Part shown: positions 23,101 to 36,300 of the stretch, one piece after another
Layout of the letters: each line of letters starts with the position of its first letter
Position numbering within the stretch: the first letter of the stretch is position 1
Assembly (NCBI GenBank): GCA_031458695.1
Contig: JAVKJW010000009.1
Location: 469-64,468, forward strand
Length of the DNA: 64,000 nucleotides
Source: Candidatus Thermofontivivens primus
Lineage (GTDB): Bacteria; Sysuimicrobiota; Sysuimicrobiia; Sysuimicrobiales; Thermofontiviventaceae
Direction of reading: 5' to 3'
Translations under genes and position numbers: made by a program
The notes under the pieces: generated by a model
Database searches by the model: none
The model's input: only the letters and a program-made list of their open reading frames with translations
Told to the model about the DNA's origin: nothing

Positions 23101-23658
23101 TTAGAGGCCCAAGGTGGGGGCGATTTCCTGCATTGCGCCCAGGACGACTCCGATGTGCTCATCGAGGGAGATCCCGAGGAGTTCAGCACCCTTCAGGATA
23201 TCCTCCCGACGCACCGCCCGTGCAAACGCCTTGTCCTTGAGTTTCCTTTTCACTGAGTCCACATCCACTTCTGCGAGGGTTTTATTCGGTTTTACAAGCG
23301 CTACCGCCACAATGAATCCAGTGAGCTCATCGCAGGCGAAAAGGGCCCTTTCGAGCAGGGATTCGCGGGGAACCCCGGAGTAATCGGCGTGGGAGAGAAT
23401 GGCACGGCACAGCTCTTCAGGGAATCCAATGGACCGAAGGTACTCCACCCCGACGAAAGGATGACCTGCCTCTTGGGAGGGACAGCGCTCGTAGTCCAGG
23501 TCATGGAGGAGCCCAACGATCCCCCATGTCTCCTCGTCATCCCCAAACCGCCTGGCATAGGCCCGCATCCCCGCCTCCACAGCCAGGAGGTGCTTGCGGA
23601 GGTTTTCACCAGCAATCCAGCTCGTCACAATCTCCCATGCCTGTTCTCGGGTGAGCAC
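23101..23658 (-). CDS. HD-domain metal-dependent phosphohydrolase
   Basis: 185 aa with HD motif GLLHDLDY plus downstream H..D residues (LSHADY). The GTG start overlaps the parB stop by 1 nt and follows GGAGGGAGGG. Confidence 0.75.
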   Translation of the reverse strand: MLTREQAWEIVTSWIAGENLRKHLLAVEAGMRAYARRFGDDEETWGIVGLLHDLDYERCPSQEAGHPFVGVEYLRSIGFPEELCRAILSHADYSGVPRESLLERALFACDELTGFIVAVALVKPNKTLAEVDVDSVKRKLKDKAFARAVRREDILKGAELLGISLDEHIGVVLGAMQEIAPTLGL

Positions 23659-24551
23659 TACCCTCCCTCCCCCTTCAGGATCCTACCGGTGATCCTGTCA
23701 AGATCGCTTGATGAGTAAAACTCAATTAGGATTGCCCCCTTCTTCCTCCTTTGAATAATCCTCACTTGGGTCCCGAGGTAAGCGCGTAGCTCTTCTTCGA
23801 GAAGCGTGAGCTGTGGGTCGCGTCTTAATTGGGTTTTAGCTTTTGTTTCACGTGAAACACTCTGGACCCTCCGAACCAGGGACTCCGTCTCCCGGACCGA
23901 GAGCCCCCTTTTCTTCACCTCCCCCCAGACCTCAAGCATCCTCGTAGTATCGCCCAGTGTGAGAATTGCGCGGGCATGGCCCTCAGTAAGCTCGCCTGCC
24001 TCAAGGCTAGACTGGATCTCCTTTGGGAGCTGAAGGAGACGCAGGGTATTGGCAACTGCGGAGCGGCTCAGACCGATCCGACGGGCGATCTCCTCCTGGG
24101 TCATCTGGAACTCCTTGATCAGCCGGTCGTATGCCCGAGCACGCTCAAGCGGCGATAGGTCTAGCCTCTGGAGGTTTTCCACAAGAGCAACCTCCATGGC
24201 TTCCCTGTCCCCTAGGGGGCGGACCACGGCGGGGATGGTGGGAAGTCCTGCAGCCGCAGCGGCTCTCCACCTTCGCTCTCCCGCTACGATCTCATAGCCT
24301 TCCTCCCGTGGACGCACAAGGATTGGCTGCAGAATACCATGCTCCTTTACCGAGGCAACGAGCTGTTGGAAATCTTCACCTGGGGTTTCCGATCGTGGTT
24401 GAAAGGGCCCTGGAGAGATCAGCTCAATAGGGATCTCCTGAACCGCCTCCTCCCTGAGCTCGATTCCAGGAAAGAGGGCTGCAAGCCCCTTCCCCAACCC
24501 TCCCTTTTTTCGGCCGCCCCGATCAGGGGACTCGTGTGAGGAGACCGGCAC
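23658..24551 (-). CDS. parB: Chromosome partitioning protein ParB/Spo0J
   Basis: GLGKGLAALF and IVAGERRWRAA box, HTH, C-terminal dimerisation region. GTG 24551 lies 8 nt after AAGGAGGT and overlaps the parA 3' end by 29 nt. Confidence 0.92.
   Translation of the reverse strand: MPVSSHESPDRGGRKKGGLGKGLAALFPGIELREEAVQEIPIELISPGPFQPRSETPGEDFQQLVASVKEHGILQPILVRPREEGYEIVAGERRWRAAAAAGLPTIPAVVRPLGDREAMEVALVENLQRLDLSPLERARAYDRLIKEFQMTQEEIARRIGLSRSAVANTLRLLQLPKEIQSSLEAGELTEGHARAILTLGDTTRMLEVWGEVKKRGLSVRETESLVRRVQSVSRETKAKTQLRRDPQLTLLEEELRAYLGTQVRIIQRRKKGAILIEFYSSSDLDRITGRILKGEGG
23844..23859. other. parS centromere site TGTTTCACGTGAAACA
   Basis: Perfect 16-bp palindrome matching the Bacillus-type parS consensus TGTTNCACGTGAAACA, located inside the 3' part of parB. 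Confidence 0.8.
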
Positions 24552-25305
24552 GAGATTCTACCTCCTTTGCGAGGTTTCTATATGCCTCTGCCCCCCGGCA
24601 CGAAGAATCATAGAGGATGATCGGTTGCCCGTAGCTGGGGGCCTCTGCCAACCGGACGCTTCTGGGGATCACCGTCTCAAATACTTTCTCCTTGAAATAC
24701 CTCCGGACCTCGTCGACAACCTGTTGGGAGAGGTTCGTCCGCGCGTCGTACATCGTCAAGAGCACCCCTCCGATGCGAAGGTTGGGGTTGAGGTGCCGTC
24801 GGACGAGGGCAATGGAATCCACAAGCTGGGAGAGCCCTTCAAGGGCGTAGTATTCGCACTGGATTGGGATGATGGTCTCGTCCGCGGCGACAAGGGCGTT
24901 CACTGTCAATAGACCAAGGGATGGGGGACAGTCCACGAGGAGGAGGTCGTATTTCTCCCGCAGAGGAGACAACGCAGCTCGAAGCCTCCCTTCTCTCCCT
25001 GGGGCTGTGACAAGCTCCACCTCTGCCCCTGCTAGGTGGATGCTCGCCGGTGCGAGGTCCAGGTTCATCACGGGCGTTGGGAGAATGACCCCTTCCATGG
25101 GCTCACCGCGAATAAGGACATCGTACATCGAGACAACGACATCCCGTTTCCGCACCCCCACCCCGCTCGTCGCATTTGCCTGGGGGTCCATGTCGATGAG
25201 AAGGATCCGGTGGGACCGTTCAGCGAGGCAGGCTCCTAAGTTCACTGCCGTGGTGGACTTCCCCACCCCGCCCTTCTGGTTGACAATTGTTAGAACTATT
25301 CCCAC
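24523..25305 (-). CDS. parA: Chromosome partitioning ATPase ParA/Soj
   Basis: Deviant Walker A VNQKGGVGKSTTAVNLG. Start taken at GTG 25305 (VGIVLTIVNQKGG..., AGGGG upstream); the track start 25326 has no SD. Confidence 0.9.
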   Translation of the reverse strand: MGIVLTIVNQKGGVGKSTTAVNLGACLAERSHRILLIDMDPQANATSGVGVRKRDVVVSMYDVLIRGEPMEGVILPTPVMNLDLAPASIHLAGAEVELVTAPGREGRLRAALSPLREKYDLLLVDCPPSLGLLTVNALVAADETIIPIQCEYYALEGLSQLVDSIALVRRHLNPNLRIGGVLLTMYDARTNLSQQVVDEVRRYFKEKVFETVIPRSVRLAEAPSYGQPIILYDSSCRGAEAYRNLAKEVESRAGLLTRVP

Positions 25306-25367
25306 GGTTGGACCCCTAAGATGCACTTCTTCAAACCATTTCGCTAGAGTGGTGAAACATCCTGCCC

Positions 25368-28076: not shown

Positions 28077-28214
28077 TCACACCGTAAGCCTCTTCCTCCC
28101 CTTGGCCCTCCTTCGCCGGAGGACATTGCGTCCTCCCGGCGTGGCCATACGGGCGAGGAACCCATGAACCCTCTTCCGTCGATGGCGCTTGGGTTGATAC
28201 GTCCGTTTAGGCAA
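28077..28214 (-). CDS. rpmH: 50S ribosomal protein L34
   Basis: [47 protein letters not shown] 28214 gives the canonical length of about 45 aa; the track ORF is over-extended to 28292. Confidence 0.9.
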
Positions 28215-28330: not shown

Positions 28331-28590
28331 TGTGGATAGGCTGGGGATAAGCCAATGAATTATCCACATTTTCTTGGGCTGCCGACTGCCTTATCCCCAA
28401 TTCCTCGGAAGAACAGGTGAACTTTTAAGCGACCCCTTCGAGGAATCATTGCTGGTTATCCACAAGATTTTCCACACCTGTGGATAACCGGTACACCCCT
28501 CCCCGCATACAAGAATACGTCCCTATGTTCGACAGGGAACCTCGATGCCAGGAGCGAATGGAACGGCGCGCCTTTCCAAAGTTATCCACA
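28331..28590. other. oriC part 1: DnaA-box cluster between rpmH and the GHKL/wHTH gene
   Basis: Perfect boxes: TTATCCACA at 28360, 28456 and 28582; TGTGGATAA at 28479. One-mismatch boxes: TGTGGATAG 28331, TGGGGATAA 28342, TTATCCCCA 28391, TTTTCCACA 28468. Confidence 0.8.
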
Positions 28591-28683
28591 ACCACGATGT
28601 ATTCTTGAACTATCACAGAACGCGAACTTGGAAGGAGGTCCTTTGTGGGTCTTAGTAGGAGTTTTTGAGGAGGTGGCAAATTT

Positions 28684-29517
28684 ATGGAGGCGCACGCACG
28701 GGAGGACAGGTCCACCTTACAAGATCTTTTCCTCCGCCTCCTCCGCGACCGGGGGCGTCACCGCGAGGAGGAGATACCAGAAGGAGGTCCTGAAGTGCGT
28801 CTGGCGATTTACGACTCTCCCCAGGCCACCCCACAGGTTATCTCCCTCTCCTCGTCCGATTTCCATGAACTGGTCGGGGAGCTTGCCAGCAAAACGTATA
28901 ACTATTCCCGGGAGCGGGGGGGGCGCATCCCTTATGTCGTGATCCGGGAGATCATCGAGAACCTGATCCACGCCTACTTCCAGGATGCCGTGATCACCAT
29001 TCTTGAGGATGGAAACACTATCCGGATCTCCGATAGAGGTCCAGGGATTAAAGACAAAGAGAAAGCCTTCCTCCCTGGCTTTACAACAGCAACTAGGGAG
29101 ATGAAGCGGTTCATCCGAGGGGTGGGGTCTGGTCTCCCTGTTGCCAGGGAGCAACTGAGCTTCCTTGGTGGGACCATCACCATTGAAGATAATTTAGAGC
29201 ATGGTACTGTGGTGACATTACAGATGGAAAAGCGCCTTCCTCATGGCCGGATCGCTCCAGGGCTCCCTGCGTCACCCCCACCACACACGCACCGCTTGCC
29301 ACTCACACCGCGCCAGAAGAAGATCCTCCTCCTCATTGCCGAGCTCGGGTCGGTGGGCCCGACCACCCTCTCCAAGGAGCTTGGGATTAGCCACAGCACG
29401 GCTTACCGAGAACTCCAGATCCTGGAGAGCCTACAGCTAGTCACCACGAAAGGAGGAGGAAAACGCACTTTGACCGAGGAAGGCATCGCATACCTCGACG
29501 AGGTCTTTAAACCCTAA
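28684..29517 (+). CDS. GHKL (HATPase_c-like) ATP-binding domain fused to a C-terminal winged-helix HTH; function unknown
   Basis: 277 aa with ATG 8 nt after GAGGAGGTG. Bergerat-fold motifs occur in order: EIIENLIHA (N box), ISDRGPGI (G1), GVGSGLPVA (G2), GTVVTLQM. A Pro-rich linker leads to the HTH ILLLIAELGSVGPTTLSKELGISHSTAYRELQILESLQLV. No His-phosphotransfer domain and no TM. Confidence 0.7.
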   Translation: MEAHAREDRSTLQDLFLRLLRDRGRHREEEIPEGGPEVRLAIYDSPQATPQVISLSSSDFHELVGELASKTYNYSRERGGRIPYVVIREIIENLIHAYFQDAVITILEDGNTIRISDRGPGIKDKEKAFLPGFTTATREMKRFIRGVGSGLPVAREQLSFLGGTITIEDNLEHGTVVTLQMEKRLPHGRIAPGLPASPPPHTHRLPLTPRQKKILLLIAELGSVGPTTLSKELGISHSTAYRELQILESLQLVTTKGGGKRTLTEEGIAYLDEVFKP

Positions 29518-29562
29518 AATATCCGGCGCAGATCAGGGATTAGGTAGCCACAGCCAAATCTA

Positions 29563-29590
29563 TTCGCAAGGTTTGTTTGGGACTTAAAAT
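29563..29590 (+). promoter_or_regulatory. Candidate dnaA-proximal promoter
   Basis: TTCGCA (29563-29568), 16 nt, TAAAAT (29585-29590), about 25 nt upstream of the dnaA GTG. Confidence 0.35.
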
Positions 29591-29615
29591 AGGTTTGCCC
29601 AGGAGGGGGAGGAGC

Positions 29616-30962
29616 GTGAGCGTTTCCAACTTCGCTGTCGAGGATGTTTGGCAGGAAGCCCTTAAGAGGATGGAGGGACTCCTCAGCAAGCCAACCTATG
29701 AATCGTTTGTCAAAGCGGTGGAGCCGGTTGCGCTCGAAGGGGAGACATTCATCTTTGCCGTCCCCAGCAAGTTTGCCAAGGAATGGCTAGAGTCCCGCTA
29801 CATCGGGCTCATTACAAGCATCCTCCAAGGAATCCTCCAGCGGAGCGTAAAGGTCCAATTCAGCGTCGCAGCCGAGGAGCCCATACCCGTAACTACTGTG
29901 GCCGAAGCCCGGCGACCTGTCCGGGCGACAGAGGCAATCCCCTTGAACCCCAAGTATACCTTTGACACCTTTGTGGTTGGGACGGGAAATCGTTTCGCAC
30001 ACGCGGCGGCGGTCGCCGTCGCCGAAGCACCGGCGAAGGCTTATAACCCCCTCTTCATTTATGGTGGTGTGGGTCTCGGGAAGACGCACCTCCTCCAGGC
30101 CATTGGGCACCATGTTCTGCAAAATCGGCAGTATTACCGTGTTGTGTATGCCTCTTCCGAGAAGTTCACGAATGAGCTCATCAATGCGATTCGTGACGAT
30201 AAAACACTGGAATTTCGGAACAAGTACCGGAGTGTCGATGTCCTCCTCATCGACGACATCCAATTCCTTGCGGGGAAGGAGCGAACCCAGGAGGAGTTCT
30301 TCCATACTTTCAACTCTCTCCATGAGGCTGGTAAGCAGATTGTGATTACAAGCGACCGCCCCCCAAAGGAGATCCCCACGCTAGAGGACCGCCTTCGCTC
30401 GCGTTTTGAGTGGGGCTTGATCGCGGACATTCAGCCGCCTGACCTGGAAACAAGGATTGCCATTCTCAGGAAGAAGGCTGAGATCGACGCCATCAACCTC
30501 CCCGACGAGGTCGCGGAGTTCATCGCCAAACAAGTCCAAAGCAACATCCGCGAGCTAGAAGGGGCCCTTGTGCGGGTCGTCGCTTACGCTACCCACGCCT
30601 CACTCCCCCTCACTGTGGAGGTCGCAGCGGAAGCCCTAGCTGATATCCTCCCCCCCTCAAGGGTGAAACCTGTTACACTCGCGGCGATCCAGAAAGTCGT
30701 CGCCGAATACTTCGGCATCCGGGTAGAAGAGATGCGAGGGAAGCGGCGCACCAAAGGCGTGGCTTTCCCTAGGCAGGTAGCCATGTATCTCGCTAGAGAG
30801 CTTACTGACGCTTCACTCCCCCAGATCGGCCAGGAGTTTGGGGGTAGAGATCATACGACAGTGCTCCACGCGTGCGAGCGTGTGAAGGCTGTGATGAGCC
30901 AGGATCCACATCTTGCCGCCTCCATCAAGGCTTTGATAGAGCAATTCCGAAGAGGAGAGTAG
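29616..30962 (+). CDS. dnaA: Chromosomal replication initiator DnaA
   Basis: AAA+ Walker A GGVGLGKTHLLQA, domain IV DNA-binding end (GGRDHTTVLHACERV). GTG 29616 follows AGGAGGGGGAGGAG; the track TTG 29577 is probably too early. Confidence 0.95.
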   Translation: MSVSNFAVEDVWQEALKRMEGLLSKPTYESFVKAVEPVALEGETFIFAVPSKFAKEWLESRYIGLITSILQGILQRSVKVQFSVAAEEPIPVTTVAEARRPVRATEAIPLNPKYTFDTFVVGTGNRFAHAAAVAVAEAPAKAYNPLFIYGGVGLGKTHLLQAIGHHVLQNRQYYRVVYASSEKFTNELINAIRDDKTLEFRNKYRSVDVLLIDDIQFLAGKERTQEEFFHTFNSLHEAGKQIVITSDRPPKEIPTLEDRLRSRFEWGLIADIQPPDLETRIAILRKKAEIDAINLPDEVAEFIAKQVQSNIRELEGALVRVVAYATHASLPLTVEVAAEALADILPPSRVKPVTLAAIQKVVAEYFGIRVEEMRGKRRTKGVAFPRQVAMYLARELTDASLPQIGQEFGGRDHTTVLHACERVKAVMSQDPHLAASIKALIEQFRRGE

Positions 30963-30963
30963 T

Positions 30964-31200
30964 TGTGGATCTGGGGGAAACATGTGGATAAGTAGGAAAG
31001 ATGTCCACAGGAGGTGCTTGTGACTTCAGGATGTGTGGAAAGGGGAGAAGTTCCCCACAACCAATTCAATGATCTCCCACAGCTTCTTCTGTGGGTGTAT
31101 TTTCTCTATGAGGCACCCCCTCTTCTAAGAGAGCCTTTCTCCCCAGAGTACACAGGGACTACTACGCCTACGGTGAATCTATTTCTATGAAAATACTAGA
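30964..31200. other. oriC part 2: DnaA-box cluster plus AT-rich candidate unwinding element between dnaA and dnaN
   Basis: Perfect TGTGGATAA at 30983. Degenerate boxes at 30964, 31001, 31034, 31051, 31073 and 31090. CTA-CTA-CGC-CTA at 31159-31170, then the AT-rich GAATCTATTTCTATGAAAATACTAGA at 31175-31200. Confidence 0.65.
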
Positions 31201-32580: not shown

Positions 32581-33696
32581 ATGGCTACTCTCCTGGAATT
32601 CGAGGCCCAGGGGTTCCGGAACCTTGGCCATGTGCGAATAGATCCTGGGGAGGGGTTAAATTTCTTGATCGGGGGCAATGCCCAAGGGAAGACAAGTCTT
32701 ATTGAGGCCGTTTACATGGTGGCAACAGGAAGATCGCCGCGGGCACGAAAGGAGGCGGAGGTGATCAACTGCTTCCAAGAGCGCGCGCTCTTACGAGCCC
32801 GCGTCCGACACGGGACGCGTGAGGAATCCCTGGATGTTATGCTCTGGCGAGTGCCCGGCTTCTTTAAGGAGCTCCGCGTCAATGGGAAGGGAGTATCGCG
32901 TGGGGAATTCTTAGGGCACATCCCCGTGATCCTTGCATGGGCCCACGACCAGGAGGTCTTGCAGGGGGCGCCAGCTCTCCGCCGACGGCTCCTGGACGAG
33001 GCCCTGGTGCAAGTGAGTCGCCCCTACTATGGTACGCTCGTCCGCTACGGACGCGCTCTCCACCAAAGGAACTCCCTGCTCAGAAAGGGGTTTTTCCGAG
33101 AGCTCGAACCATGGGATGAGCAGCTTATTCTCCATGGGGTTGTCCTTACTGTACGAAGGCATGGCTTTCTGAGGCGCTTAGCTCCCCTTGTGAGCCAGGC
33201 CTATCAAGAGCTCACAGGAGGACAGGAGTCCCTTGAGGTGCACTTTCTTCCTTCTTGGGACGGCACCACCTCACAGGAGGTAGGAGAAGCTGGACGAGCT
33301 GCCCTAAAGCGATTCCGGAAGTTGGAGGAACAGCGTAGGTCAACGCTCACCGGCCCACACAGGGATGAGGTTGTATTCCGTGTGGGTGGGCTTGACTTGC
33401 GCGCCTACGGGTCACGAGGGCAACAGGTAGCAGCCATGCTTGCTTGGCGGCTTGGGGAGTGGGAAGTCTTCCGCCAGGAGCTTGGGGAGGAGCCCGTGCT
33501 CCTCCTCGATGACGTCCTTGCTGAACTTGACCTTAACCGCCAATCTGGGTTACTTGCGCGGGTCGCGCATGGTCCCCAGGTCTTGGTGACAGCAACCTCT
33601 CTCCCATCTCCAGCGCTGGAAGGACTCACGGCGAAGGTGTTTTCCATCCATGCAGGGAGGGTCTCCCAATGGGCCGGAGAAGGCGTTCGGAGCTAA
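32581..33696 (+). CDS. recF: DNA replication and repair protein RecF
   Basis: Walker A GGNAQGKTSLIEA, signature and Walker B (VLLLDDVLAELD). Confidence 0.93.
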   Translation: MATLLEFEAQGFRNLGHVRIDPGEGLNFLIGGNAQGKTSLIEAVYMVATGRSPRARKEAEVINCFQERALLRARVRHGTREESLDVMLWRVPGFFKELRVNGKGVSRGEFLGHIPVILAWAHDQEVLQGAPALRRRLLDEALVQVSRPYYGTLVRYGRALHQRNSLLRKGFFRELEPWDEQLILHGVVLTVRRHGFLRRLAPLVSQAYQELTGGQESLEVHFLPSWDGTTSQEVGEAGRAALKRFRKLEEQRRSTLTGPHRDEVVFRVGGLDLRAYGSRGQQVAAMLAWRLGEWEVFRQELGEEPVLLLDDVLAELDLNRQSGLLARVAHGPQVLVTATSLPSPALEGLTAKVFSIHAGRVSQWAGEGVRS

Positions 33697-33989
33697 CTCC
33701 CATTCAAGAAGTCCTTCGCCGCAGTGGACCTGGTCAGGAGTGGGCAAGGATTGCGGCTGCTGCGCTCGCGCAACACCTCTGGGAGGAAGTAGTTGGCCAG
33801 GAGGTAGCACGGGTTGCCTGGGCTCGATCTGTCCAAAACGGCGTCCTTATCGTGGTCACGAGCCACCCTGTCTGGGCGCAAGAGCTCTCCCTGCGTCGCA
33901 AAGAGCTCATAGAGGAAATCCATCGCAGGGTTGGAGCAAAGGTCCTTGAAGATATCCGGTTCGTCGTCGCGAGTAGGGAAGGGGAATAG
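33669..33989 (+). CDS. DUF721 protein (DciA-family, helicase-loading factor-like)
   Basis: 106 aa. LWEEVVGQEVARVAWARSVQNGVLIVVTSHPVWAQELSLRRKELIEEI fits the DUF721 pattern. Lies in the recF-gyrB slot and overlaps the recF 3' end by 28 nt. Confidence 0.75.
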   Translation: MGRRRRSELTPIQEVLRRSGPGQEWARIAAAALAQHLWEEVVGQEVARVAWARSVQNGVLIVVTSHPVWAQELSLRRKELIEEIHRRVGAKVLEDIRFVVASREGE

Positions 33990-34016
33990 CAGAGGGGAAC
34001 GAGGGGAGGTATGGAG

Positions 34017-36300
<2,284 letters not shown>

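Follow-up and report, generated by a model that had tools for sequence, protein, structure and literature searches.

A conserved gene preceding dnaA encodes an ATP-binding, winged-helix protein that is a candidate regulator of replication initiation

In Candidatus Thermofontivivens primus a gene that we call X lies between rpmH and dnaA, where the canonical layout of the model organisms has no gene. It encodes a soluble protein in which an ATP-binding domain of the histidine-kinase type, with its motifs intact, is connected by a linker to a C-terminal winged helix. The gene is strictly syntenic with dnaA, from which it is separated by a short gap or with which it overlaps. On the basis of this architecture and synteny we regard X as a strong candidate for a hitherto undescribed regulator of the initiation of replication. 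We think it somewhat more likely than not that X, as the conserved leading gene of an operon with dnaA at a bipartite origin, encodes a protein that depends on nucleotide and is dedicated to DnaA as its partner or regulator.

Results

The locus and the reading frame of X

The DNA analysed (here termed the window) is a stretch of 64,000 nt, and the features of the region of interest are collected in Table 1. The preliminary description of this DNA had noted a 277-codon open reading frame with its ATG 8 nt after GAGGAGGTG, and dnaA beginning 98 nt after its end. All this is borne out, the frame by the list of open reading frames (plus strand), the first distance by GAGGAGGTG at 28667-28675 and the second by the GTG of dnaA at 29616. 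The ATG that is used in most relatives reads AGG in the window, so that the upstream ATG at 28684 is likely to be the start of X. The closest relative (L092) has the corresponding start, likewise with a protein of 277 aa.

The listed rpmH reading frame extends to 28292 (71 aa), but the L34 domain comprises only its last 43 residues (29-71). There is a promoter-like site TTGAAT-18-TATAGT with TG at 28296-28267 on the minus strand, assigned to rpmH. The conserved block in these loci is parB-parA-rsmG-jag-yidC-yidD-rnpA-rpmH / dnaA-dnaN-recF-dciA-gyrB, several genes of which are unrelated to initiation; the parA and parB genes of the window lie at 24523-25326 and 23658-24551. Scanning the window for Rfam families and tRNAs gave no match. 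Repeats, integrase and tRNA genes are all absent from the vicinity of X, as judged by the gene list of the window and the tRNA scan.

Table 1. Coordinates of features around gene X in the window.
Feature	Position	Strand	Description
rpmH (ribosomal protein L34)	28077-28211	-	Divergent from X; Pfam Ribosomal_L34, E 2.3e-22
rpmH-side DnaA-box cluster	28331-28590		4 perfect and 4 one-mismatch boxes; layout kept upstream of X in relatives
Three-DnaA-box composite	28456-28487		TTATCCACA-n3-TTTTCCACA-CC-TGTGGATAA; conserved
Single perfect DnaA box	28582-28590	+	About 100 nt 5′ of X start
Gene X	28684-29517	+	277 aa, soluble; HK-type ATP-binding domain, linker and winged helix; first of the X-dnaA pair
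Family-specific N-terminal elements	28711-28914	+	Helix 10-25, beta-hairpin 37-56, helix 60-77 (AF2)
Bergerat-fold ATP-binding core	28933-29226 (residues 84-181)	+	Pfam HATPase_c; Foldseek to HK CA domains
Disordered Pro-rich linker	29236-29298 (residues about 185-205)	+	pLDDT <50 at 185-203; sequence variable
C-terminal winged helix-turn-helix	29302-29505 (residues 207-274)	+	wHTH Pfam matches; pLDDT 90-96
X-dnaA spacer	29518-29615 (98 nt)	+	No DnaA box, no terminator-like site; weak promoter-like site and dnaA RBS
dnaA	29616-30962	+	448 aa, GTG start; Pfam DnaA_N, Bac_DnaA, Bac_DnaA_C
dnaN-side origin half	30964-31200		Boxes, DnaA-trio-like run, then AT-rich stretch

X is a conserved neighbour of dnaA

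The order rpmH (minus strand), DnaA boxes, X and dnaA (both plus strand) is found in about 90 loci. Within genome contigs all 80 species-level loci have the arrangement rpmH(-) / X(+) dnaA(+) dnaN; dnaA is visible directly 3′ of X in 78 of these, and the other two end at the edge of the contig. Among the loci are those of Sysuimicrobiota or CSP1-3-like MAGs, of Aquicultoria and other Actinomycetota, of Coriobacteriia (including Collinsella), of a Clostridia MAG and of UBP13, and the order persists in lineages in which the identity of DnaN falls to about 30%. Among the loci with both flanks readable none has X placed elsewhere. The gap between X and dnaA has a median of 39 nt and does not exceed 15 nt in 20 of 85 loci; in three loci the genes overlap by 2-4 nt. 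These values omit L018 (840 nt) and L052 (897 nt), which are artefacts arising from a frame problem at the start of the alignment. The same gene order is seen with gaps of 10 nt in a Coriobacteriales genome, 12 nt in the Clostridia MAG and 11 nt in an AT-rich contig.

Homologues of X are not scattered at random. In every case where the contig is long enough to include the neighbouring genes, X lies between rpmH and dnaA, co-oriented with dnaA. No close relative without X was found; most X loci were retrieved using X itself, and the four that were selected through DnaA (95-70% identity), all from the clade of the window, have X directly upstream in every case. X had been described as inserted in front of dnaA. 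Its position from rpmH to dnaA stands, but the term insertion is misleading for a gene that is a conserved partner in the relatives.

The X family is large, with 364 clusters at 50% identity (E <= 1e-30). They stand apart from the 3906 clusters obtained at E <= 1e-3, the majority being presumably generic HATPase_c proteins. In the source databases members are labelled just 'ATP-binding protein', and JGI names some of them 'anti-sigma regulatory factor (Ser/Thr protein kinase)'. An equivalog for X does not exist in NCBIfam, and no paper describing a protein of this type was found in the literature outside most subscription journals. The earlier impression that X belongs to no described origin-associated family agrees with the results from all three sources.

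Compared with L092, X has dN/dS of 0.041 at dS 0.78. Over 69 loci the mean identity to the protein of the window is 60.6% for X, 63.1% for DnaA and 47.2% for DnaN, and the identities of X and DnaA are correlated (r = 0.88). These comparisons indicate that X is under strong purifying selection, is inherited vertically, and is about as conserved as DnaA. Taken with the gene order, they point to X as a long-standing, vertically transmitted partner of dnaA within one operon in these lineages.

A recent incidental insertion, or a mobile or defence gene that has entered the rpmH-dnaA spacer, might be suggested by the canonical layout and by a weak resemblance of the winged helix to the CRISPR-associated Csa3/CasR regulators. 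We regard this reading as already refuted. None of the relatives examined lacks X, and this is true also of the loci selected through DnaA; its divergence follows that of DnaA under a low dN/dS (0.04), and repeats and integrase or tRNA genes are lacking nearby. No homologue was found in plasmid and phage collections, and the PADLOC matches (CasR, E 1.1e-7) span the winged helix alone.

We consider it very unlikely that X is a passenger unrelated to replication, i.e. a nucleoid-associated, chromosome-organizing or general regulatory protein that is kept near oriC for reasons of dosage or timing, or is frozen in an ancient rnpA-rpmH/dnaA-dnaN block. It is true that the whole block from parB to gyrB is conserved, including the genes that have no role in initiation, and a conserved position near oriC alone is no proof of a role in replication because rpmH and rnpA are equally syntenic and are unrelated to initiation. 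However, X is always the immediate upstream neighbour of dnaA on the same strand, across a gap of a few to a few tens of nt that contains a DnaA box in none of the loci compared and, in the window, no terminator-like site. That adjacency survives in the lineages with the most divergent DnaN, and no readable locus has X at another site.

The origin region

The sign of the GC skew changes at 28-32 kb in the window, and therefore the origin of replication is placed here. There are 26 DnaA boxes with one mismatch or fewer in the whole window, compared with 7.0 ± 2.3 expected, and this number was reached in none of 100 shuffles. The four perfect and four one-mismatch boxes that had been reported upstream of X were all recovered, the perfect TTATCCACA boxes starting at 28360, 28456, 28479 (minus strand) and 28582 and the one-mismatch boxes at 28331 and 28342 (both minus strand), 28391 and 28468. 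The last two boxes of the composite are arranged head-to-head, creating a near-palindrome. Its 10-mers occur in 28-30 of 71 upstream regions, compared with about none in shuffled sequences. A DnaA box at about -100 to -140 relative to X keeps its position in most Sysuimicrobiota-like relatives, and there are 2-8 boxes upstream of X in every locus except the scaffold-gapped L089, which has none. We suggest that the rpmH-side cluster is an incAB-like half of a bipartite origin, the operator of an X-dnaA operon, or both.

On the dnaN side there are one perfect and five two-mismatch DnaA boxes at 30964-31145, and these are followed by the DnaA-trio-like run CTACTACGCCTAC at 31158-31170 (TAG repeats on the minus strand); the consensus of the DnaA-trio is 3′-GAT-5′ (PMC10721633). 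In the relatives the spacers between dnaA and dnaN are enriched in the sequence TAGTAGTAG lying next to a DnaA box. The origin is probably bipartite and of the B. subtilis type, with X as the first gene of the X-dnaA pair.

The ATP-binding module

Bergerat-fold motifs had been recognized in X in the expected order, and they are found as EIIENLIHA (residues 89-97), DRGPGI (117-122), GVGSGLPVA (146-154) and GTVVTL (174-179). The core contains an N box (E89..E92-N93..H96-A97), a G1 box (D117-x-G-P-G-I), K125, a G2 box (G146-x-G148-x-G150) and G174-T175. The lid of X, PGF(T/S)xA or PGF(S/T)T, is like that of histidine kinases and CheA. All the ATP-binding residues are invariant in 36 diverse members of the family.

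Profile searches and structure prediction agree that the Bergerat/GHKL fold is genuine. Residues 84-182 match Pfam HATPase_c with E 1.5e-12 (48.4 bits against a cut-off of 26.4). In the AF2 model the pLDDT of the GHKL block is mostly 83-96, and its best structural neighbours (Foldseek) are the CA domains of histidine kinases (E about 1e-6), which are also the best matches in a PDB profile search (E about 2e-5). The hairpin that precedes the core bears a signature R39/A41 and (Y)D44...P50; R39, A41, D44, P50 and G79 are invariant in the same 36 members.

It had also been stated that X lacks a DHp helix, a TM segment and a receiver domain. Pfam gave no match to HisKA or to a receiver, and the highest mean hydropathy over 19 residues (Kyte-Doolittle) is 0.95, so no TM segment is indicated. 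The sole invariant histidine is H96, within the N box, while H61 in helix 60-77 is not conserved. A histidine kinase was ruled out by the lack of a DHp or H box and of a response regulator. A GHL (MutL-like) ATPase was also ruled out, since the structural matches favour CA domains of the histidine-kinase type and there is no transducer domain. The MutL motif is ELVENSLDA, which the N box EIVENLIHA resembles; the MutL match in the PDB profile search (E 0.01-0.25) covers the N-box region only.

X could instead be a protein kinase or 'anti-initiator' in the manner of SpoIIAB and RsbW, which phosphorylates DnaA or another initiation protein on Ser, Thr or His while the winged helix keeps it at the origin. 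Its nearest structures and profiles are those of kinase-type GHKL proteins (HK CA, CheA P4, BCK and SpoIIAB), the N-box glutamate lies four residues before the Mg-binding asparagine (E89...N93), and the invariant G1 and G2 boxes, the lid and the JGI label of some members fit such an enzyme. We nevertheless judge this improbable. The SpoIIAB model (TIGR01925) scores 24.5 against a cut-off of 135 bits, a gene for a STAS or sigma partner is absent from all loci with called genes, and no acceptor residue can be named. To our knowledge phosphorylation of DnaA is not an established mechanism of control.

The linker and the winged helix

A proline-rich linker followed by a helix-turn-helix had been proposed for the C-terminal part, and these are confirmed at residues 192-209 and 214-253. 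Across the lineages the linker is about 20 residues long at its shortest and can exceed 200, with long low-complexity examples in P0128, P0209, P0144 and P0240, and the substitutions in X relative to L092 cluster within it. In the winged helix both the recognition helix S-x-S-T-A-x-R-E-L and the wing G-K-R-T-L-T are strongly conserved. The Pfam matches in this region (HVO_A0261_N, HTH_11, DeoR, TrmB, IclR and MarR) are all below cut-off; the best score is for the Csa3-type TIGR01884 (E 8.9e-8, 31.7 against 60.2 bits). Since the linker is disordered and very variable in length, a tethered two-module protein is a better fit than a rigid allosteric sensor coupled to a helix-turn-helix.

Transcription of X and dnaA

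A weak promoter TTCGCA-16-TAAAAT had been proposed in front of dnaA. The site is present at 29563-29590 and agrees at 9 of 12 positions, but it is not conserved in L092 (95% identity in DnaA), where the RBS is the only part of the X-dnaA spacer that is conserved. Transcription of dnaA from upstream of X is therefore more likely, and the spacing suggests that the two genes are co-transcribed.

The interval before X is about 400-980 nt long. Analysis of k-mers in 71 upstream regions shows enrichment of DnaA-box variants and the rpmH promoter only. When DnaA boxes were masked in 19 divergent loci, a crude search with ungapped k-mers (two mismatches or fewer) gave no X-specific operator in the rpmH-X interval; the -35 and -10 elements of rpmH were alone in exceeding the shuffled controls. 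The Sysuimicrobiota-like clade has conserved blocks CGTGAAA, GGTAGGAGT and GCGGCCAA near the start of X. They were considered as promoter elements but could not be so assigned; in the window there is no room for a promoter at these blocks because of the upstream ATG.

These data bear on the possibility that X is a one-component transcription factor only. The ATP domain would sense adenylates or energy status and the winged helix would control the X-dnaA promoter, and possibly that of rpmH, setting the dosage of DnaA with no contact to the DnaA protein or effect on unwinding of the origin. Such a protein would combine a sensor-like nucleotide-binding domain with a winged helix resembling those of the ligand-controlled Csa3, TrmB, MarR and IclR, and X is the first gene of its operon, downstream of a long regulatory interval; autoregulated regulators are common in that position. 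Yet a conserved operator other than DnaA boxes was not found in the interval, the disordered linker of variable length speaks against direct allosteric coupling of the domains, and conservation at the level of DnaA across phyla together with the overlap of stop and start codons with dnaA in some lineages exceeds what is usual for a local repressor. On these grounds we think it rather unlikely that X does nothing more than this.

Discussion

A possible function in initiation

The function that we favour for X is that of a dedicated partner or regulator of DnaA. In this mechanism the winged helix would hold X on DNA in the region of the origin or the dnaA promoter, and the flexible linker would allow the ATP-binding module to reach a partner close by, for which DnaA itself or another molecule of X is the most plausible candidate. 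Binding and turnover of ATP could then act as a switch on the assembly of DnaA, on transcription of the X-dnaA operon, or on both. If X and DnaA are translated from one transcript under the control of DnaA boxes, the amount of X would track the synthesis of DnaA. We note that CA domains of the histidine-kinase type are normally kinases rather than switches, which counts against this part of the proposal. From architecture and synteny we infer a regulatory role, and with it binding to origin DNA, dependence on ATP, contact with DnaA and the sign of the effect on initiation.

A stronger version is possible, though we hold it tentatively. X might be an obligatory co-factor of initiation in much of the Bacillati/Terrabacteria (Sysuimicrobiota, basal Actinomycetota, Coriobacteriia and some Clostridia), i.e. 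an ATPase or kinase of the GHKL fold, tethered to DNA, whose direct effect on DnaA at the rpmH-side half of the bipartite origin would be to load, license or restrain it. This would constitute a class of initiation control without parallel in E. coli, B. subtilis or Caulobacter. The order rpmH / boxes / X-dnaA / boxes and trios / dnaN could then be ancestral, and the layout of the model organisms would have arisen by loss of X.

The control of DnaA has been studied in detail in only a few model bacteria, each of which uses unrelated, lineage-specific factors. X provides a concrete candidate that spans several poorly studied phyla. Its carriers include abundant Coriobacteriia of the human gut (such as Collinsella and Atopobiaceae), and cultivation is possible for some of these. 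If DnaA is indeed acted on by X, an ATPase of the GHKL fold would join the short list of nucleotide switches for origin firing, there would be an explanation for a gene that is conserved in the best-known synteny block of bacteria and has yet been overlooked, and X would offer a lineage-specific target. Even the modest reading of an ATP-sensing autoregulator of the dnaA operon would tie energy status to the dosage of the initiator in a new way. Programs that find oriC by taking the rpmH-dnaA spacer to be intergenic would mis-describe origins that carry X.

Comparison with known systems

The sensor histidine kinases (HK853, CpxA, WalK and PhoQ) and the P4 domain of CheA share with X the Bergerat fold and the N, G1, F-like and G2 boxes. 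Histidine kinases have a DHp/HisKA domain with a phospho-acceptor histidine, whereas X has neither of these and no sensor or TM region. They also have a cognate response regulator, while the neighbours of X are rpmH and dnaA in all loci. In addition X has its own N-terminal helix and beta-hairpin (R-x-A-x-(Y)-D...P) and its C-terminal winged helix. X lies outside the subfamily of the anti-sigma kinases SpoIIAB and RsbW; anti-sigma F appears in the PDB profile search at E about 0.01, behind histidine kinases and CheA, and there is no gene for a sigma factor or STAS anti-anti-sigma factor in the locus of the window or in the fetched loci with called genes. In the GHL ATPases (MutL, GyrB, Hsp90 and MORC) the core is followed by an S5-fold transducer with a catalytic lysine and the N-terminal part dimerizes in a manner driven by ATP, whereas the core of X ends at about residue 181 and gives way to the linker and winged helix.

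The COG2865 proteins with AlbA_2, HATPase_c_4 and winged-helix domains (DIP2311, PDB 3lmm) have, like X, a GHKL-like domain followed by a C-terminal winged helix, and Foldseek aligns X with 3lmm over both parts (E 6e-5, TM to query 0.37). This similarity is at the level of the fold only, with no AlbA_2 or HATPase_c_4 match to X in Pfam. These proteins are not linked to dnaA as far as we know, and are themselves uncharacterized. The Csa3-type regulators (CARF and winged helix) likewise join a domain that binds a nucleotide ligand to a winged helix, but X lacks a CARF domain and does not lie in a CRISPR context. X would qualify as a one-component regulator by its architecture, having an input domain (HATPase_c, 84-182) and a helix-turn-helix (207-274) in a single soluble protein.

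Searches of Pfam, NCBIfam and PDB profiles gave only HATPase_c and winged-helix matches, with no homology to YabA, SirA, Soj, Hda, DiaA, HobA, SeqA or DnaD/DnaB. Soj/ParA of B. subtilis is an ATP-dependent DNA-binding switch in the origin region that acts on DnaA. X may resemble it in logic only; Soj is a Walker-type ParA protein, in contrast to the GHKL fold of X, and X, which lies within the probable dnaA operon itself, is separate from the parA-parB pair of the window. DnaA (AAA+ with the helix-turn-helix of domain IV) and the archaeal Orc1/Cdc6 (AAA+ with a C-terminal winged helix) have the same order of modules as X and are likewise encoded at the origin. The ATPase of X is GHKL and not AAA+, and this comparison lends no support to oligomerization or DNA melting by X. 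Beside X the locus has an ordinary DnaA together with DnaA boxes and DnaA-trio-like repeats.

Conservation of the gene upstream of dnaA

The 277-codon gene that we call X lies between the DnaA boxes on the rpmH side and dnaA. A genomic scan using one genome per GTDB species gave 138 confirmed relatives, and in all of the best 80, which were retained, X is located between rpmH, rnpA and yidC on the opposite strand and dnaA, dnaN and recF on the same strand. dnaA is seen directly downstream in 78 of these loci; in the other two the contig ends within or just past X. Thus the occupation of the rpmH-dnaA interval noted in the preliminary description is maintained in relatives. Because loci retrieved through X itself form a biased sample, a second look-up was made starting from DnaA. 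All four hits checked (DnaA identities of 95, 72, 70 and 70%) carry X directly upstream of dnaA, with gaps of 74, 38, 33 and 10 nt. Close relatives lacking X, which would have indicated an incidental insertion, were therefore not encountered among these four, and recent insertion is effectively refuted.

From sequence-record labels and NCBI taxonomy, X loci are present in Candidatus Sysuimicrobiota (the CSP1-3 lineage; Fervidifonticultor, Geohabitans and Tepidifontimicrobium), in look-alike MAGs labelled Armatimonadota, Bacillota or ANGP1, and in UBP13 and Actinomycetota (including Candidatus Aquicultor). The same arrangement is found in a distant Coriobacteriales genome (X-dnaA gap 10 nt), a distant Clostridia MAG (X of 428 aa, gap 12 nt) and an AT-rich contig with a distant X (gap 11 nt), and X clusters of Coriobacteriaceae and Atopobiaceae are abundant in public data. 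At the Collinsella vaginalis locus L089 (LT838842.1, 6001-6641) X adjoins rpmH, is truncated to 214 aa and marked 'partial', and has unrelated genes after it in the place of dnaA; the most likely cause of this break is a scaffold join or an assembly gap, not a genuine rearrangement. We note implausible taxon labels (Nitrosymbiomonas, Bryobacteraceae, Slackia heliotrinireducens, Roseiflexaceae and Bacteroidales) on loci L010, L043 and L071 and proteins P0405 and P0546, suggesting that such MAG contigs are mis-binned or mislabelled.

More than 2000 matches to X were found among 5.8 billion proteins. The best 120 are 61-73% identical and ~260-290 aa in length, and none has a name more specific than 'ATP-binding protein'. 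An exhaustive profile search, covering 1.84 billion representatives, yielded 364 clusters (50% identity) at E <= 1e-30; they stand apart from the 3906 found at E <= 1e-3, the majority of these presumably being generic HATPase_c proteins. Family members range from 205 to 492 aa; the long ones keep both conserved modules, with a low-complexity linker between them that can exceed 200 residues.

Against the closest relative (85% nucleotide identity) the dN/dS of X is 0.041 (dS 0.78) and that of dnaA 0.016, and the amino acid changes in X are concentrated in the linker. Compared with the proteins of the window, X is on average 60.6% identical at 69 loci, DnaA 63.1% and DnaN 47.2%, and the identities of X and DnaA are correlated (r = 0.88). 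The pattern of evolution is therefore that of a core housekeeping gene, with X vertically inherited along with dnaA. We consider it very unlikely that X is a passenger locked into the synteny block. No homologue was found in 72,556 plasmids or 50,697 phage records, and matches of X to defence models arise through the winged helix (wHTH) only.

Structure of the X protein

In Pfam, residues 84-182 match HATPase_c (E 1.5e-12, above cut-off), and Foldseek against the PDB matches class-I histidine kinase and CheA catalytic domains (E ~1e-6), bearing out the GHKL-type fold read from the motifs. The profile of X matches CheA P4 (2e-5), KinB, BCK, WalK and HK853 in the PDB, with SpoIIAB and MutL weaker. 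As originally described, X contains no HisKA or receiver domain and no TM segment; apart from HATPase_c and the winged helix, Pfam shows no other domain. The C-terminal winged helix proposed at the same time is matched by several Pfam families at residues 207-274, every one under its cut-off, but is predicted confidently by AF2 (209-274); in the family alignment its recognition helix is conserved and its wing basic. There is no NCBIfam equivalog for X; its best matches, to a Csa3-type wHTH and to the ATP-binding ends of numerous kinases, all score far under the cut-offs.

The first AF2 model (18 sequences, mean pLDDT 76) has a helix at 12-26, a β-hairpin at 38-55, a helix at 57-77, the Bergerat core at 84-181 and a disordered linker at 185-203. 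A second, of residues 1-189 from 36 diverse sequences, gave pLDDT 82.5 and pTM 0.73. Residues E89, E92, N93, D117, G119, G121, K125, G146, G148, G150, G174 and T175 are invariant in 36 diverse members, and no His outside the N box is conserved among the members aligned. Judged from its sequence, X is soluble and its ATP site is intact. It combines an orphan ATP-binding domain of the histidine kinase type with N-terminal elements peculiar to X, a flexible tether and the winged helix.

The ATG used as the start by most relatives reads AGG in the window (alignment over 28684-28730). Here and in the closest relative (L092) X starts ~11 codons further upstream, at an in-frame ATG that has a GAGGAGG RBS of its own, making the N-terminus slightly longer.

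The origin region and transcription of X

Features of the dnaA region in the window
Feature	Position or length	Strand	Remark
parB, parA, rsmG, jag/khpB, yidC, yidD, rnpA, rpmH	block ends ~28211	-	
rpmH-X interval	470 nt		holds DnaA boxes
Three-box composite	28456-28487		
Short conserved blocks	28620-28680		
X	28684-29517	+	
dnaA	29616-30962	+	
dnaA-dnaN spacer	262 nt		
Spacer DnaA boxes, trio-like run and AT-rich stretch	30964-31200		
DnaA-trio-like CTACTACGCCTAC	31158-31170	-	TAG repeats read on the - strand
dnaN, S4-domain gene, recF, dciA, remA-like gene, gyrB		+	after spacer
dciA	33669-33989	+	after recF
remA-like gene	34011-34307	+	between dciA and gyrB
gyrB, mechanical ORF	34120-36300	+	TTG start

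The sign of the GC skew switches at 28-32 kb, placing the chromosomal origin here. The window contains 26 DnaA boxes (up to one mismatch), where 7.0 ± 2.3 are expected by chance. A box scan found the four perfect and four one-mismatch boxes of the rpmH-X interval exactly where the preliminary description had put them, and the RBS, ATG and motif strings of X, the 98-nt X-dnaA spacer and the weak promoter-like site within it were likewise as described. The dnaA-dnaN spacer has one perfect and five degenerate (two-mismatch) boxes, followed by the trio-like run and an AT-rich stretch; in relatives this spacer is enriched in a DnaA box then TAGTAGTAG, the motif being TCCACAGGTTCTACTACTAC. With boxes in both intervals the origin is bipartite, resembling that of B. 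subtilis, where the order is rpmH-incAB-dnaA-incC-dnaN, and X is flanked by the incAB-like cluster and dnaA. The elements of the spacer point to a basal unwinding system of the B. subtilis type, so that unwinding most likely occurs on the dnaN side.

Upstream of X there are 2-8 DnaA boxes in all loci except the scaffold-gapped Collinsella (none). A composite TTaTCCACA-n3-TTtTCCACA-cC-TGTGGATAAC is conserved ~205-235 nt upstream, and a single box ~100-140 nt upstream. In the window the composite comprises three boxes, two of them head-to-head as a near-palindrome TCCACAcCTGTGGA, kept in ~30 of 71 relatives; Actinomycetota loci have instead a convergent box pair 23 nt apart. Besides DnaA, a dimeric protein could bind at the composite. 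Sysuimicrobiota-like loci share the short blocks CGTGAAA, GGTAGGAGT and GCGGCCAA, which lie 30-100 nt ahead of the X start and may be promoter elements or a feature of the leader.

At 85 loci the median X-dnaA gap is 39 nt (range -4 to 177); it is 15 nt or less in 20 loci, and in three the genes overlap by 2-4 nt, which suggests translational coupling in some lineages. No DnaA box (up to one mismatch) lies in the gap at any of the 85 loci, and no terminator-like site separates X from dnaA in the window. The weak promoter-like site is not kept in the closest relative, only the dnaA RBS being common. From the tight gaps, the boxes confined to the upstream side, the lack of a terminator and the unconserved promoter-like site we infer that X and dnaA are probably co-transcribed from a DnaA-box-controlled promoter upstream of X.

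Beyond recF, the DciA gene (helicase-loader-type; PF05258, E 1.1e-18) is also found in L001, L004, L088, L090 and L092-L095 and is missing from L091, among the X loci in which genes past recF are called. On this basis these lineages appear to use DciA rather than DnaC/DnaI. The small RemA-like gene (PF04025, E 3.7e-7) keeps its place in L001 and L004. The TTG of the mechanical gyrB ORF is far upstream of the conserved GyrB N-terminus, and the true start is probably near 34400.

Proposed function

X is always first, immediately upstream of dnaA and behind the DnaA boxes, while the length of its tether is unconstrained. Together with the ATP site and winged helix, these features lead us to propose that X would be produced with DnaA and under its control, that it may bind DNA in the origin or promoter region through the winged helix, and that ATP binding, hydrolysis or phosphotransfer might serve as the switch through which it acts on DnaA, on the operon promoter or on both. 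Since the linker is variable and disordered, a tethered effector or an ATP-driven dimer/avidity mechanism is favoured over rigid allostery.

A functional tie to DnaA, oriC or dnaA expression is likely. That X is a regulator of DnaA or the origin in the terms just proposed has a little better than an even chance, and its individual sub-mechanisms less. An ATP site joined to a winged helix might also make a purely transcriptional autoregulator that senses ATP, which we think unlikely, and a SpoIIAB-type kinase or anti-initiator is less likely again.

Relationship to known systems

No curated family for X was found, sources name it only 'ATP-binding protein' or by generic JGI domain labels, and the literature searched, mostly outside subscription journals, contains no description of X or of its link to dnaA; the earlier view that it is not a described origin-associated family therefore stands. 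The novelty lies in the family and in how strictly it is associated with dnaA; the component domains, and the idea of lineage-specific DnaA regulators, were already known. There is a substantial, though less than even, chance that X represents an initiation factor of a wholly new class. The link is unusually clean across several phyla, including cultivable gut bacteria, so that initiation control outside model organisms becomes directly testable through X.

By fold the ATP module is nearest to the CA domains of histidine kinases, yet X has no H box/DHp and no response regulator, and fails the defining tests of a histidine kinase. As an anti-sigma kinase it scores far below cut-off and has no sigma or STAS partner; it lacks the transducer domain of GHL ATPases and the AlbA_2 and HATPase_c_4 domains of COG2865 proteins, and has no homology to any tested family of DnaA regulators. 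The likenesses are in logic, not membership: to Soj, an ATP switch with DNA binding that acts on DnaA; to DnaA and Orc1/Cdc6, where an ATPase is followed by a (winged) HTH; and to Csa3 as a one-component regulator.
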